A DNA stretch of 6,155 bases, taken from IMG/VR virus record IMGVR_UViG_2541047432_000011, one strand, 5' to 3'. A program made the translations under genes and the position numbers. Below, piece after piece: positions 1 through 5,976 of this stretch. Source of the stretch: a virus. Its lineage: Duplodnaviria; Heunggongvirae; Uroviricota; Caudoviricetes. The first letter of the stretch is position 1, and each line of letters begins with the position of its first letter. The notes under the pieces were generated by a model. The model was not told where the DNA came from, made no database searches, and saw only the letters and a program-made list of their open reading frames with translations.

Positions 1-503
1 GCCAGACATTCGGCACCGGACATCCAGGTTTCATCCGCCAGCATGGCGGCAATTTCATCGGTGGTTTTTCCGGTTTTCTGCGCATAGGCTGGCAACAGTA
101 CCGATTCGACTTTATCCAGCAAATCGGCATAACTGCGCATATCCTCAGCATCCCCGCCACTGAATCCCCATGGCTTATGGATCATCATGAAGGCATTTTC
201 CGGCATAATGACCGTATCACCGGCCATCGCAATCACAGATGCCATCGAGGCGGCAACGCCATCCACATACACGGTAATGGTCGCCCCCTGATTTTTCAGG
301 GCATTAAAAATGGCGATGCCTTCAAAGACATCGCCACCCGGTGAATTGATATGGAGATTAATGTGGGTGATATCACCCAGTGCATTCAGTTCGCTGACAA
401 ACTGCTTCGCGGTAACTCCCCAGAAACCAATCTCGTCATAAATATAAATATCCGCGTCACCCGGCCCCCCAGCTTGCATCCTGAACCAGGATTTATTCTT
501 CAT
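1..503 (-). CDS. Prohead (head maturation) protease, ClpP/S14-like; partial, 3' end beyond window start, 167 N-terminal codons present
   Basis: My reverse-complement translation from ATG at 503..501 gives MKNKSWFRMQAGGPGDADIYIYDEIGFWGVTAKQFVSELNALGDITHINLHINSPGGDVFEGIAIFNALKNQGATITVYVDGVAASMASVIAMAGDTVIMPENAFMMIHKPWGFSGGDAEDMRSYADLLDKVESVLLPAYAQKTGKTTDEIAAMLADETWMSGAECL, open to the window edge. It carries ClpP-like motifs INSPGG, AASM (candidate catalytic Ser) and MIHKP (candidate catalytic His). It lies directly downstream of the portal, as lambda C does after B. An alternative start is the ATG at 479..477; the 503 start overlaps the portal stop by 11 nt. It is absent from the ORF track because it runs off the window. 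Confidence 0.8.
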   Translation of the reverse strand, partial: MKNKSWFRMQAGGPGDADIYIYDEIGFWGVTAKQFVSELNALGDITHINLHINSPGGDVFEGIAIFNALKNQGATITVYVDGVAASMASVIAMAGDTVIMPENAFMMIHKPWGFSGGDAEDMRSYADLLDKVESVLLPAYAQKTGKTTDEIAAMLADETWMSGAECL

Positions 504-1995: not shown

Positions 1996-2231
1996 TAAAA
2001 CCTCGCCAGTTTAAATCCCGGTTTTCCCCGCCTGCGGCTCACCATCGCGGCAAGCCTGCGTTCCCACTCCTGACGTCCGGCGCGGATCTGAGAAAGGCTT
2101 TCCAGCGTCAGTTGCTGCCCGTTGAAGATGACAGACTTTCCCTCCAGTACGGCCATTTCCGCTTCACGGTACCGCTGTATCATTTCTCTGGCTTCTTCTG
2201 TGCTCACAACCAGCCTCCTGATGTTATCCAT
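1995..2231 (-). CDS. Head-tail joining / head completion protein, lambda gpW-like
   Basis: 78-aa ORF ending in the basic tail SRRRGKPGFKLARF, like the lambda gpW C-terminus QRRRGPAGFYV (from memory). It sits between large terminase and portal as in lambda. The true start is probably the internal GTG at 2207..2205, giving 70 aa: it is preceded by a perfect AGGAGG (2219..2214) with a 6-nt spacer and overlaps the TerL stop as GTGA. The ATG at 2231 would overlap TerL by 28 nt behind a weak SD. Confidence 0.75.
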   Translation of the reverse strand: MDNIRRLVVSTEEAREMIQRYREAEMAVLEGKSVIFNGQQLTLESLSQIRAGRQEWERRLAAMVSRRRGKPGFKLARF

Positions 2232-4327
2232 GGATTATCTTCCGCACGCTCCGTCCGCAGTTTTTTCTTCCGGCGACGGCGTTTTTCTGCCCCGGCCGTC
2301 AGTTCCGGGGATACCGTTTCACCAGAACGCTCCTGCGGGAAGACGAGCCACGTTTCCCGCTGTGCCCAGTCCGGTGCGGAGGGCCAGCGGATCTTTTCGT
2401 AACCATGCAGAACGGCAAGCGCATCCGCATAAACCAGCAGGTCAAACGCTTCGTTAGCGCCCCTGCCCGGTTTTCGCCATTTTCCGTCACTGCCGCGCTC
2501 TTCATAGGTCAGCTCATCGTAAAACCACCGCCCCAGCCAGTCGGGAAAGTGGATATAGTTCGGCCCTGGTGTGTCACGCCACAGGGCATTATTTACACGA
2601 TCCTTAAACGCATCCGTCTGAACCAGCCACAGCGCGACATCGCCACTGGCTCTGGCACGGCGGGCACTTCTGCCGGTATTATCCGGGAAGGTTCGGTTAA
2701 TCAGCCTGTCACGGCGAAGTCCATCCCCCTTGAACAGAAACACCCTGTTGCCCAGTCCGTCACTCCGGCAACGACGCCAGAAACGATAGGCGTTATCTGT
2801 CACCCCGGCTTCCCCTCCCGTATCCACCGCCATGGCCATCAGACGCATGCGCACATCCGGATCAGAAGCCAGCGGCCATGTTTTATGGAACACATCCGTC
2901 AGCAACAAATCCCAGTCCTCCGGATATGCCGCCGGATCAACCGGCAGACTTTCACCGTTGGGACTGCAGCGCAGTGAATGCCGGATGTTGTAGCGATCAA
3001 CAATCCAGCGTTCCCCCTGCTCTCCGTATCCGGTGATCTGCACAACAAAACGGCGATTTTTACCGCCCTGTACGTCAACCGTTGCCTCAATAAAACGCAC
3101 ACCATCCGGCACAGATCGCCGGGGAAACGGCTCGGCACGCTGTTCAAGCAGTTCACTTTTACGCTGTTCCGTGGCTGAACGGGGCAGATAGGGTCGTCCG
3201 ATATCGGTGTTCACCACCGCTTTCAGGGTCTCTTCACTGCCGGTTCGCTCATACTCTTCTTCTGCCGCCAGCAGTTTAAAAATCAGTTGTTCCCAGGTCT
3301 GAAACGCCGCAGCTGGCCCCTCCATCCAAAATGACGCAATCCGGGAGTTTCGTGGCGTTCCGGTGATACTGCCGTCCGCCGCCGCCCGTTCACCTTCACG
3401 AAGCCAGATCCCCTGGTTATTCAGTTCGCGTTTCTGCTCAGGGGCAATCAGCCCGCGACAATGCGGACACATCAGACGGGCAGCCTGACCGGCAGCCACA
3501 AAATCCGGGTTATTCCGGTATCCGGTCATGTTATCCATCACCGGCTGAAAATATTCCCCGCAGTGCGGACACGGCCAGTACCACCGGCGGCGGTCTCCCC
3601 GGTTATACAGTGACAGGATCCCCGTTGTTGGCGGTGCCTCATGTGCGCCACCACAACGCCATTTGGTATCGGTGATATCCCGCCCCGGTGAACTCTCGAC
3701 CAGGGTCATCCCCGAGGACATAAAGGTGGTGGTACGCTTTGAGGCCAGCGTGAAGGCATCCCCTTCCCCGTCCACATTTTCAGGGAAACGGTCATAATCC
3801 GTCAGCGCCACACGACGGTAATCCGAAGAGGAAAAGACGGTGATCGACGGCCAGCCAATCTTCAGGAAGGAGCCGTCAAGAAACATTTTATCGTGGACGT
3901 TGTTGTCATTACGGGAAGGACTGAGGCGCTTGCTGACCTCCGGACTGTGGCGAAACGTCCTGGAAAGACGCGTTCTGGAATGCTCACGCGCCTTCGTCTC
4001 AGTCATCTGCACCACCAGCATATCCGCCGGATCACAGATGATGCCGTACACAATCCAGCCATCAATCAGCCCTTCGGTTTTCCCGGTTCGCGCAGGTCCC
4101 ACAAACACCACCGCGTCATATTCACGGGCTGATAATGTATTAATGGGGTCAATCATATAGGGCGTCAGCGATGACTCCCACGGACCGGAAGTATTGGCTC
4201 CCCGTGGAACCCGCATATAACGCCTGATGGCTTCCGCTACTGGTAACCGGCTGGGTGGGCGAAACAGCGAGGCCACTTCGCGCCAGATATCGGATGCGCG
4301 GCTATGGCTCTCGTTCACCTGATTCAC
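2204..4327 (-). CDS. Terminase large subunit, lambda GpA family (ATPase plus cos endonuclease)
   Basis: 707-aa ORF. Walker A-like GPARTGKT is encoded at 4099..4076, which I verified codon by codon. N-terminal SLFRP and the CPHCGEY motif match lambda gpA SLFRP and CPHCGEE (from memory). The start is GTG at 4327..4325, overlapping the TerS stop (ATGTGA). It lies directly downstream of the Nu1-like gene. Confidence 0.9.
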   Translation of the reverse strand: MNQVNESHSRASDIWREVASLFRPPSRLPVAEAIRRYMRVPRGANTSGPWESSLTPYMIDPINTLSAREYDAVVFVGPARTGKTEGLIDGWIVYGIICDPADMLVVQMTETKAREHSRTRLSRTFRHSPEVSKRLSPSRNDNNVHDKMFLDGSFLKIGWPSITVFSSSDYRRVALTDYDRFPENVDGEGDAFTLASKRTTTFMSSGMTLVESSPGRDITDTKWRCGGAHEAPPTTGILSLYNRGDRRRWYWPCPHCGEYFQPVMDNMTGYRNNPDFVAAGQAARLMCPHCRGLIAPEQKRELNNQGIWLREGERAAADGSITGTPRNSRIASFWMEGPAAAFQTWEQLIFKLLAAEEEYERTGSEETLKAVVNTDIGRPYLPRSATEQRKSELLEQRAEPFPRRSVPDGVRFIEATVDVQGGKNRRFVVQITGYGEQGERWIVDRYNIRHSLRCSPNGESLPVDPAAYPEDWDLLLTDVFHKTWPLASDPDVRMRLMAMAVDTGGEAGVTDNAYRFWRRCRSDGLGNRVFLFKGDGLRRDRLINRTFPDNTGRSARRARASGDVALWLVQTDAFKDRVNNALWRDTPGPNYIHFPDWLGRWFYDELTYEERGSDGKWRKPGRGANEAFDLLVYADALAVLHGYEKIRWPSAPDWAQRETWLVFPQERSGETVSPELTAGAEKRRRRKKKLRTERAEDNPWITSGGWL

Positions 4328-4800
4328 ATATCGGCCTCATCACAACAGTCAATGACTGCCTTTTCCAGTGTGTCGCGGATCTCATCAACCACAATCTGTA
4401 CTTCATTCAGTTGTGATGCAGTCCACCCCCTGTCCCTCTCCAGCCGGTCAGGCCAGGTTTCCAGTACCTGAACTATCGCTTTCACCACGACAGAAAAGGA
4501 CCGCCTGACATCACTGACTGGCACAAGCTGAACAGTTTCATGCTGAAATTTAAGACGCTCGCGCTCGGACTGATACCATGCCTTACGAGCGTGAGGATCC
4601 ATATCCTCATCTTCGGAAGATGGTGGTTTTTCCAGCAACGAAGTTATCAAATCCGTCAGGAGATACAGTTTTTTCTTTTCATTACTGCCTGGTGCAAGAG
4701 GAACATCCGCCATTCTGGCGGCAACAGTCTGCCGGTGCAGACCTGAAAGGGCTGCCAGTTGATTAATATTTAACTTCATATTTTTCAGCTCGCCGTCCAT
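4324..4800 (-). CDS. Terminase small subunit, Nu1-like (N-terminal HTH DNA-binding domain)
   Basis: 158-aa ORF. MKLNINQLAALSGLHRQTVAARMADVP aligns with lambda Nu1 MEVNKKQLADIFGASIRTIQNWQEQGMPV (from memory). It is the first gene after the cos region, and its stop overlaps the TerL start. The ATG at 4800 has GGAGGG 7 nt upstream; a second possible start is the ATG at 4779, which would align better with the lambda Nu1 N-terminus. Confidence 0.8.
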   Translation of the reverse strand: MDGELKNMKLNINQLAALSGLHRQTVAARMADVPLAPGSNEKKKLYLLTDLITSLLEKPPSSEDEDMDPHARKAWYQSERERLKFQHETVQLVPVSDVRRSFSVVVKAIVQVLETWPDRLERDRGWTASQLNEVQIVVDEIRDTLEKAVIDCCDEADM

Positions 4801-4985
4801 TTACATCCCTCCACATAAACCGCAGAACAGAAGTGACTCTGTTTTTTTGTAAAGAAATGCCGCCATATAAAGATGTCGAACAAAAAACAACCACAATCAT
4901 CATCTTTTTAATACTAACAGCATTAAAAACAACAAGTTACCATCATGATGATGATGACGATAAAATCACAAAAATGCGCCTTTTT
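4801..4985 (-). other. cosB-like region: AT-rich, A-tract-rich terminase-binding and bending segment between cosN and the small terminase start
   Basis: About 185 bp of non-coding AT-rich DNA immediately upstream of the TerS start, with multiple A/T tracts. The minus-strand reading CGTCATCATCATCATGATGGTAACTTGTTGTTTTTAATGC parallels lambda cosB CGTTCTTCTTCGTCATAACTTAATGTTTTTATTTAAAATACC (from memory). I could not assign individual R elements or an IHF site. Confidence 0.55.
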
Positions 4986-5004
4986 CCGCGCCCGCCCGCC
5001 CCGT
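4986..5004 (-). other. Candidate cosN (terminase nicking site / cohesive-end core)
   Basis: Minus-strand reading of 5004..4986 is ACGGGGCGGGCGGGCGCGG. This compares with the lambda cos junction ACGGGGCGGCGACCTCGCGGG (from memory): identical ACGGGGCGG on one side and CGCGG on the other, with a different central segment. It lies roughly 185-200 bp upstream of the TerS start, as in lambda. Exact nick positions cannot be derived from sequence. Confidence 0.5.
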
Positions 5005-5035
5005 GTTCAGGCCCACCCCACCAGGAGGACCCGCA

Positions 5036-5056
5036 AAATGATAATGGTTATCATTT
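5036..5056. repeat. Perfect 9-bp inverted repeat AAATGATAA-TGG-TTATCATTT, function unknown
   Basis: Read directly: 5036-5044 aaatgataa, a 3-nt spacer tgg, and 5048-5056 ttatcattt, the exact reverse complement. It lies about 30 bp from the cosN-like core on the side away from the terminase. Confidence 0.9.
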
Positions 5057-5260
5057 GCAACAAAATCCAGTTTCTTCCACCATCGCACCGGACTGGCGAC
5101 TATGAGGGGACAACGCCGCGCTCCGTTAACGCGGTAAACCCCGGTGTGTATCGTTTTTGATTATCCCCGCACACTCGCGCAGAGGATTCTCCCGGTCGGG
5201 CTGCGGTCTCTGTTAATGCAGGAATACGGCGACAATACCGCGCATGAATAATAAGGTCGC

Positions 5261-5485
5261 TCAACACACTGGCTGTAATGCAGCGGATACCATGCGGCAT
5301 TTAGCGGCATTCATCGTACACTCAACGGTTAGCTCTTCATTCGTGGCATTCACCTGAAAGGTCCTGGAGTGTAATTGCGTACATTTACCACTGAACGAAC
5401 CTTCAACAAGAACACGACCACGCTGCAAAATACGGAACGGAATTGTTCCCTGAAAAGGCTTTACGGTTACCAATAATTTCTTCAT
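5261..5485 (-). CDS. Hypothetical small protein, 74 aa, four Cys, function unknown; candidate moron between lysis cassette and cos
   Basis: ATG at 5485..5483 is preceded by GGAG with a 5-nt spacer; the track's longer form starts at TTG 5503. The product is MKKLLVTVKPFQGTIPFRILQRGRVLVEGSFSGKCTQLHSRTFQVNATNEELTVECTMNAAKCRMVSAALQPVC. It starts 20-odd nt after the Rz stop on the same strand. I see no signal peptide, no TM segment, and no family I recognise. Confidence 0.5.
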   Translation of the reverse strand: MKKLLVTVKPFQGTIPFRILQRGRVLVEGSFSGKCTQLHSRTFQVNATNEELTVECTMNAAKCRMVSAALQPVC

Positions 5486-5508
5486 GCATTCTCCGAATAA
5501 CAAAAATA

Positions 5509-5976
5509 CTAGTTAATACACTGAGTGCGGATATATTCCTGAAGCATTCTCAATGCTGCCTGGTCGCTGATGATTCCGTCTCTGATACCGAGAACGTTTC
5601 GTCCAGCAACCGGAGAGAGTTCGACGGCGGCATCATTGCCCACGCCGGAGGTGCCGGTGGCTTCACGCACGGTACCGGGGCAGGTGGCGTTGATCCGCAG
5701 GCGCTTACGACCAGCGGCAACATCAGCACGCAGAGTTTCATTTTCAGCTCTCGCATCGGCTAATTCCCTCGAGTATTTTGCATCGAGCGCAGCAACATCA
5801 CGCTGGCGCACCTGCATGTCAGTAATGGTGGCATTCGCCTGTTCCAGCTCTCTGGCTTTTTTATCGCGCTGCGCTTTGTAGGTGAGCGCGTTGTCACGGT
5901 AATGGTTTGTTGCCAGCCACAGCGCACCACAGCCAACCGCCATGACAATAATCACCACACACAGAACACGGTTCAT
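5509..5976 (-). CDS. Rz: Rz i-spanin (inner-membrane spanin subunit)
   Basis: 155 aa with an N-terminal TM segment ([19 protein letters not shown]) followed by [45 protein letters not shown]. This is near-identical in pattern to lambda Rz [45 protein letters not shown] (from memory). Confidence 0.92.
5550..5756 (-). CDS. Rz1: Rz1 o-spanin (outer-membrane lipoprotein), embedded out of frame in Rz
   Basis: [22 protein letters not shown] aligns with lambda Rz1 MLKLKMMLCVMMLPLVVVGCTS (from memory). It has a lipobox-like VSAC followed by a proline-rich stretch [21 protein letters not shown], and lies entirely inside the Rz reading frame in a different frame. Confidence 0.85.

Follow-up and report, generated by a model that had tools for sequence, protein, structure and literature searches.

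The cos site and its neighborhood

The window (the whole stretch of 6,155 nucleotides analyzed here) carries on its minus strand a G/C-rich block that is likely to serve as the functional cos for a lambdoid prophage resembling VT1-Sakai/Sp15 and the long-tailed Stx phages in type. An earlier note on this DNA had proposed a lambda-like cos upstream of the small terminase, and cosQ, the left half of cosN, cosB-like repeats, terS and terL are indeed present in that order. The sequence readout for 5004..4986 on the minus strand is ACGGGGCGGGCGGGCGCGG, as the note had reported, and the block stands out from an A/T-rich gap in the manner it had described, with a GC fraction of 0.74 at 4975-5024 vs 0.26-0.34 across 4825-4974. 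The A/T-rich stretch adjoining the block extends for 175 bp, down to the small terminase start codon at 4800; on its other side the block reaches ~5037 and has cosQ inside it.

We numbered base pairs from G1, window position 5001, which is the first base past ACG. cosN (4986..5004, minus strand) consists of ACG, then GGGCGGGCGGGC (5001..4990), then GCGG, and its left half, CG/GGGCGG (ACG/GGGCGG at 5004..4996; slashes mark predicted nicks), is the same in lambda, mEp460, and Fels-1. By analogy with lambda, the top-strand nick is predicted between 5002 and 5001 and the bottom-strand nick opposite 4990/4989 in a 12-nt model or 4991/4990 in an 11-nt model. cosQ (GGGTCCT; 5026..5032, minus strand) matches lambda cosQ (48473-48479) exactly, and its first base lies 31 bp from the predicted top-strand nick, as compared to 30 bp in lambda. 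It is kept in nearly all members examined of the VT1-Sakai clade, which we defined by the flanks GGGCCTGNNCACG ... GCGGAAAAA. A single match in the window was obtained for GGGTCCT-N(16-28)-CGGGGCGG, a composite of cosQ and the cosN left half, which occurred in 0/200 dinucleotide-preserving shuffles.

Directly upstream of cosQ is a palindrome, AAATGATAA-cca-TTATCATTT (5036..5056), an inverted repeat with 9/9 complementary positions, which we list as a conserved neighbor of cos and not as an established component of it. In other clade members this position is occupied by a GC hairpin and a T run instead, and the equivalent place upstream of cosQ in lambda reads GATGATAATCATTATCAC, with GATGATAATCATTATC at 48450-48465. 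By eye, the minus-strand sequence GCAAATGATAACCATTATCATTT (5036-5058) matches the Fur-box consensus GATAATGATAATCATTATC at 16/19 positions. Rfam, promoter and terminator scans of the cos region returned no relevant match.

The minus-strand gene order is Rz, cos, terS, terL, W-like gene and lambda-family portal, with full-length ORFs. Rz (5509-5976) is followed by a gap of ~700 bp before the gene for the small terminase TerS (158 aa; 4324..4800, minus strand), with its ATG at bp 202 when counted from the predicted left end. Two small candidate ORFs are present on the minus strand between Rz and cos, at 5100-5300 and 5261-5503; a 66-aa ORF in this interval matches the "Rz-like spanin" PHROG (1.4e-13) and an 80-aa ORF matches phrog_2571, of unknown function (4.2e-29). 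The large terminase TerL (707 aa; 2204..4327, minus strand) is of the gpA type (GpA_ATPase PF05876, 1.8e-81; GpA_nuclease PF20454, 6.2e-84), has 24% identity to lambda gpA over its full length (E = 1e-18), and is the enzyme expected to nick cosN. The head-tail adaptor (W-like; 1995-2231) and the lambda-family portal (493-1995) follow on the same strand.

TerS matched Pfam DUF1441 (3.8e-48) and phrog_141, "terminase small subunit" (6e-66). BLASTP found no similarity between TerS and Nu1, Pfam assigned DUF1441 only, and alignment of TerS residues 9-58 to Nu1 residues 2-53 by hhalign was weak (E = 0.012, probability 3.6%). The AlphaFold model of TerS (mean pLDDT 76) has an N-terminal helix-turn-helix followed by long helices, with the N-terminal ~55 residues modeled as a winged helix-turn-helix. 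The best PDB neighbors of this model by Foldseek, all with E-values > 0.05, were 7LWR, 7LW0, MerR-family regulators, and lambda gpNu1 1J9I (probability 0.92, TM 0.54 on target, rmsd 2.9 Å). The 7LWR and 7LW0 entries have titles referring to viral DNA packaging motors, and we take them to be TerS DNA-binding domains. We found no significant sequence link of TerS to Nu1 or to any solved structure, and TerS is outside the Nu1 family by sequence, while its modeled fold suggests a protein that is Nu1-like in outline.

Putative cosB elements

From cosN toward terS, the inverted repeats, conserved blocks and I1-like sequence occur in the order R3 - I1 - inverted R2 - R1, which is the layout reported for lambda, phi80, 21, and Gifsy-1 (PMC9026076). 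The labels are putative and were assigned from position, repetition and conservation. In relatives these blocks recur with unchanged spacing. Putative R3, the TerS site nearest cosN (ATCGTCATCATCATCATGATGG; 4940..4961, bp 41-62, minus strand), forms an inverted repeat with 4896-4904 as identified by a repeat finder; the R3 block is at a fixed distance from CGCGG throughout the clade, and the equivalent place in Fels-1 and mEp460 is taken by a CATCATCATC / CATCACCAC block. The putative IHF-like site I1 (TAACTTGTTGTTTTTAAT; 4922..4939, bp 63-80, minus strand) aligns with lambda I1 TAACTTAATGTTTTTATT, is by our reading by eye one mismatch from YAANNNNTTGATW, and is placed between R3 and the inverted R2, as in lambda (PMC9026076). 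Putative R2 (ACCACAATCATCATCTT; 4890..4906, plus strand) takes part in inverted repeats and is oriented opposite to R3 and R1; numbered from G1, this inverted copy reads AAAGATGATGATTGTGG at bp 96-112, and it is kept in the clade as AAAGATGATG[AG]TTGTGG. Putative R1 (TGTTCGACATCTTTATA; 4867..4883, bp 119-135, minus strand) forms an inverted repeat with R2 and is the weakest of the three R assignments, and TTGTTCGACATC / TTGTTCATCA in its region is kept in the clade, mEp460, and Fels-1.

Relatives, distribution, and reported packaging

The cos region is 100% identical over 300 nt to that of prophage VT1-Sakai (AP000400), in which nothing is annotated at the cos position, and is 93-97% identical to a set of Stx2-converting phages. 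This type of cos was found in 542/5426 complete E. coli genomes (about 10%), and 270 complete-genome records, mostly O157:H7 among the matches listed, have a 76-mer around cosN with at least 99% identity. The site would place the genome ends for a very common E. coli prophage family (the VT1-Sakai/Sp15-type and long-tailed Stx1/Stx2 phages, ~10% of complete genomes), whose records carry no cos annotation. In the literature searched, we found neither a description of the Sp15/VT1-Sakai cos nor a paper in which GGGCGGGCGG occurs together with "terminase" in a phage context.

Many other lambdoid phages, of the Stx1a-converting and PhiR5/PhiR12 kinds, have 91-93% identity to the window on the 5026-5245 side, up to ~5026, and then diverge. 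That the identity to the window ends at ~5026, the cosQ edge, puts cos at a mosaic boundary where the lysis module gives way to the packaging module.

Our case for a functional site is built on what could be observed directly, namely how the sequence is laid out and conserved, which families its proteins belong to, and its identity to phages reported as packaged. The yecE Stx2a phage of strain 12E129 has an identical cosN and 99.3% identity to the window from cos through the portal start, and the second Stx2a phage of the same strain has the same cosN. For both of these phages, DNase-resistant DNA was reported after mitomycin C (Nakamura et al., PMC8112680). Sp15 likewise has an intact terminase and its DNA is packaged, being DNase-resistant in mitomycin C lysates, but it has head-gene defects (Asadulghani et al., PMC2669165). 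These reports bear on a caveat of the earlier note, that the element might be a non-inducible remnant whose G/C block is not cut by its terminase. As an objection to the cos assignment it is weakened by the packaging of near-identical 12E129 Stx2a phage DNA and Sp15 DNA (PMC8112680, PMC2669165); however, if the window comes from a prophage with head-gene defects like those of Sp15, that prophage may not produce virions of its own.

In the assembly of phage ASU11 (ON416862.2, L246), a mitomycin-induced phage of a sister subclade, exactly 44 nt spanning cosN are missing. Such a gap is as expected if the physical ends lie at cosN, terminal sequence was lost and the ends were joined. Our search of the literature on phage ASU11 found nothing relevant.

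If cutting proceeds as in lambda, an analogy from which we drew the order of events as well as the nick positions, overhang length, and R/I1 assignments, DUF1441 TerS dimers would bind R3, R2, and R1, and an IHF-type bend at I1 would fold cosB. The folded cosB complex would anchor the gpA-type TerL on cosN, where TerL would nick the top strand past ...ACG (5002/5001) and the bottom strand about one helical turn rightward. Strand separation would be followed by rightward packaging toward terS, terL, and the portal, and at the next cos the terminating cut would be supported by cosQ (GGGTCCT).

Divergence of the cosN core from known cos systems

The lambda genome (J02459) ends ...GGGTCCTTTCCGGTGATCCGACAGGTTACG (...GGTTACG) and begins GGGCGGCGACCTCGCGGG, in agreement with the lambda junction given in the earlier note. 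Read as 12 nt, the window sequence GGGCGGGCGGGC shares bp 1-6 with lambda GGGCGGCGACCT and has six differences, all at bp 7-12 (GCGGGC in the window vs CGACCT in lambda), which bears out the note's description of conserved flanks (CG/GGGCGG and CGCGG are kept) around a divergent core. The predicted cohesive end is accordingly distinct from GGGCGGCGACCT at all of bp 7-12, as had been proposed, and would be unable to anneal with lambda-type ends. The alignment to lambdoid cos sites that the note had suggested as a check shows that lambda, mEp460, and Fels-1 share the left half and CGCGG with the window, and it upholds the suspicion that the core is 1 nt shorter, the ACG-to-CGCGG interval being 11 nt here and 12 nt in lambda, mEp460, and Fels-1. 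The CGCGG right-flank motif therefore begins at bp 12 and not at bp 13, bp 13-14 are GC, and the window lacks the conserved right nick flank (CG directly after bp 12; CGC[AG]G at bp 13).

Compared over J02459 48473-48502 and 1-190, lambda and the window have in common cosQ GGGTCCT, CG/GGGCGG, a right-hand CGCGG and, by putative assignment in the window, an IHF-like site (TAACTT..TGTTTTTA) as well as three R-type repeats of which the central one is inverted; in both, terS and terL follow directly downstream, TerL is of the gpA type and the portal belongs to the lambda family. They differ in that putative R3 and I1 of the window lie nearer to cosN by ~10 bp, in that their R sequences show no relationship, and in that TerS is DUF1441 in the window vs Nu1 in lambda. 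Both mEp460 and Fels-1 share with the window the DUF1441 TerS family, the ...CACG/GGGCGG and CGCGG[AG]A.. flanks and a CATCATC-type R3 block, but have the canonical 12-nt interval (GGGCGGGAGCGG and GGGCGGCAGCGG, respectively). In mEp460, cosQ is 29 bp before the nick, and the Fels-1 terminase gene annotation cites VT1-Sakai. The same cos architecture was found in every related clade. Putative cos sites have also been presented for Sakai Sp4/Sp14 (Asadulghani 2009, Fig S8), which have the same strain background as Sp15 but are Nu1-type prophages; these sites were inferred by alignment to lambda and linked to packaging via a co-resident terminase (PMC2669165).

[quoted passage not shown] In lambda, bp 7-12 are naturally variable and mutation-tolerant, and conservation is seen in cosQ, bp 1-6, and the CG flanks; natural variants include N15 and phiD326 at bp 9 and 12, and Gifsy-1 at bp 8, 9, and 11 (PMC4669245). 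The cosN of mEp213 and LLS has been inferred to be GGGCGGCGCGCT (PMC12315714). In IMG/VR, at least 12 different 12-mers start GGGCGG and have CGC[AG]G at bp 13, GGGCGGCGACCT being the commonest among the matches listed. However, N15, phiD326, Gifsy-1, and mEp213/LLS all have exactly 12 nt between the CG flanks, in contrast to the VT1-Sakai clade, which has 10, 11, or 12 before CGCGG. The divergent right half is hence ordinary variation, and the displaced right flank alone is less ordinary.

Natural variation in cosN length

When length was counted from G1 through GCGG, the commonest form in the clade was 15 nt (GGGCGGGCGG-CGCGG; 76 among 116 IMG/VR instances), followed by 16 nt (37 among 116, of which 18 have the exact sequence of the window), the canonical length of 17 nt (3 among 116), and 12 nt (1 among 116). 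The metagenomes gave a similar picture, with length 15 in 22/24 loci and length 16 in 2/24. CGCGG thus follows the left nick by 10 or 11 bp, rarely 12, and by 11 in the window. By comparison, in the IMG/VR survey of flanks, in which overlapping CGCGC matches were scored as canonical, the other lambda-like cos with a right-flank motif had CGC[AG]G at bp 13 (a 12-nt interval) in all 83 among the matches listed.

The length changes in the clade sit in G runs (GGGG / GGG / GG), and at one locus with flanks identical to those of the window a whole GGGC unit is lost. There are 27 distinct flank haplotypes for length 16 and 60 for length 15, and length 16 is represented by five different core sequences. 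A TerL 99.6-100% identical to that of the window adjoins length 15 in 27 loci, and one at least 95% identical (median 99.3%) adjoins length 16 in 13 loci. The 10/11/12-bp series between the nick flanks, with a TerL 99.6-100% identical to that of the window beside two of the lengths, is in effect a natural experiment on placement of the second nick by a gpA-type enzyme.

We rejected the idea that the extra G relative to the commonest form is a sequencing error, because the same sequence is present in the Sanger-era record AP000400 as well as 270 complete-genome records. We also rejected the idea that a second, downstream indel makes up for the one in cosN: the CGCGG-to-R3 distance is constant in the clade, and G1-to-R3 is 45 or 46 bp, shifting with the indel.

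Length of the cohesive ends

The mature left end is most likely a 12-nt 5′ extension, GGGCGGGCGGGC, by analogy with lambda. We favor 12 nt because the right half is sequence-tolerant in lambda, where this holds for both bp 7-12 and the bottom-strand nick (PMC4669245), and because only a length of 12 brings the majority variant into line with the CG rule. With a fixed 12-bp stagger, variants of length 15 keep CG on both sides (GGGCGGGCGGCG/CGG) and those of length 17 are canonical. Length 16, that of the window, reads GGGCGGGCGGGC/GCGG, and the GC after the bottom-strand nick counts against a 12-nt stagger, as CG at this position is highly conserved according to Feiss (PMC4669245). A further point against the 12-nt reading is that G1-to-R3 varies by 1 bp in the clade, as the spacing of cosN and cosB is reported to be critical in lambda (PMC9026076).

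A possible but doubtful alternative is that the site is the same functional cos, but that the bottom-strand nick tracks CGCGG, or its fixed distance to R3, and not a fixed 12-bp stagger. On this reading the cohesive ends of the window would measure 11 nt (GGGCGGGCGGG), those of the commonest clade variant 10 nt and those of the rare variant 12 nt. CGCGG and its R3 distance are constant in the clade while the ACG-CGCGG interval is 10, 11, or 12, and the occurrence of CGC[AG]G exactly at bp 13 in all 83 of the other lambda-like sites among the matches listed suggests that this motif is selected. The cosQ-to-CGCGG distance, 42 in the window (31+11) as in lambda (30+12), points the same way, and in lambda the bottom-strand nick is thought to be positioned by R3-bound TerS (PMC4669245, PMC9026076). 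Against such tracking, changes in the right half have little effect in lambda (PMC4669245), and the two nuclease centers have been proposed to act as a symmetric dimer with fixed geometry (PMC9026076). The 12-nt model also gives exact CG flanks to the majority variant, in which G1 through GCGG spans 15 nt. In the literature searched, which comprised sources other than Vahanian et al. 2017, we came across no lambda-like phage whose ends are 10 or 11 nt long; that paper (Virology 509:140) is reportedly a survey of natural cosN variants.

A corollary for the clade as a whole, which we put forward only tentatively and think rather unlikely, is that the nick stagger is not fixed at 12 bp and that the same TerL produces 10-, 11-, or 12-nt ends depending on the length of the cosN G run; alternatively, TerL would shift one nick off the conserved flank. 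If the stagger does vary, co-resident and near-identical prophages would have non-interchangeable ends, and nick placement by gpA-type enzymes would depend on the flank sequence and on anchoring at cosB and not on dimer geometry.

No virion-end sequence for any member of the clade was found in the collections searched. Among phage records, IMG/VR contigs, and metagenome contigs of the clade none was found that starts or ends at the nick, and none of the 24 loci in the metagenome scan ends at G1. Several draft-genome contigs that stop 1-3 nt before the nick were considered as virion ends and rejected, as they belong to isolate assemblies that break where co-resident prophages diverge. The sister-clade record LR595868.1 (mEp460_4F5; L002/L228) is interrupted 5 nt to the left of the nick and, compared with mEp460, is missing 3 nt of cosN; we rejected it as an end determination and read it as an assembly artifact near real ends. 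The small cosN deletions of ASU11 and mEp460_4F5 are probably both artifacts of assembly across cohesive ends. A human gut metagenome contig (L258; OWZI01000003.1, 223 kb) contains a fused Nextera adapter, AGATGTGTATAAGAGACAG, at 9 nt to the left of the cosN nick and is probably a chimeric assembly.

Alternatives to a functional cos

A reading that we consider quite unlikely is that the site is a decayed cos, in which the extra G relative to GGGCGGGCGG-CGCGG arose by slippage in a G run, went to fixation in a defective prophage passed on by vertical inheritance, and impaired or abolished cutting. The predominance of the one-base-shorter form (76/116 in IMG/VR, 22/24 in the metagenomes), the location of the length changes in G runs and the loss of a GGGC unit on flanks identical to those of the window are what such decay would leave, and exact matches to the window are mostly in clonal O157:H7 genomes, among those listed. 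Sp15 also has other morphogenetic defects (PMC2669165). However, the length class of the window is represented by 27 distinct flank haplotypes and five core sequences, an identical cosN is present in the two 12E129 Stx2a phages with packaged DNA (PMC8112680), and TerS, TerL, and the portal are all intact in the window.

That the block is not a packaging site at all, and is either G/C-rich by chance or a G-rich element with a regulatory or structural role (a G-quadruplex, for example), is highly improbable: although several G3-4 tracts lie on the minus strand from 5032 to 4986 and (GGGC)n oligonucleotides are reported to form G-quadruplexes, lambda cosQ and cosN are matched base for base at critical positions and at the right distance and orientation to terS, the composite cosQ-cosN motif was absent from all 200 shuffles, the architecture recurs across the related clades and the cos region has no Rfam family match.

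Packaging specificity

The earlier note had suggested that the divergent cosN would have consequences for packaging specificity. This is not supported, as the lambda and N15 terminases do not discriminate between cosN sequences and specificity has been located in cosB/TerS (Feiss et al., PMC4669245). Judged from their sequences, the cosB repeats and the DUF1441 TerS almost certainly confer a packaging specificity distinct from that of lambda, and they would do so because cosB and TerS differ and not because of cosN.

Paired cos sites

Two clade cos sites in direct orientation, ~2.5 kb apart, were observed in some prophage contigs, namely L093 (417-2979), L137, L156, L126, L155, L191, and L194. 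The interval between the two sites in L093 contains a 75-aa ORF and a 629-aa ORF whose product resembles a fusion of a ClpP-type protease with a major capsid protein, and the second cos is followed by a 93-aa ORF that starts MTEAEI and is not a DUF1441 TerS.
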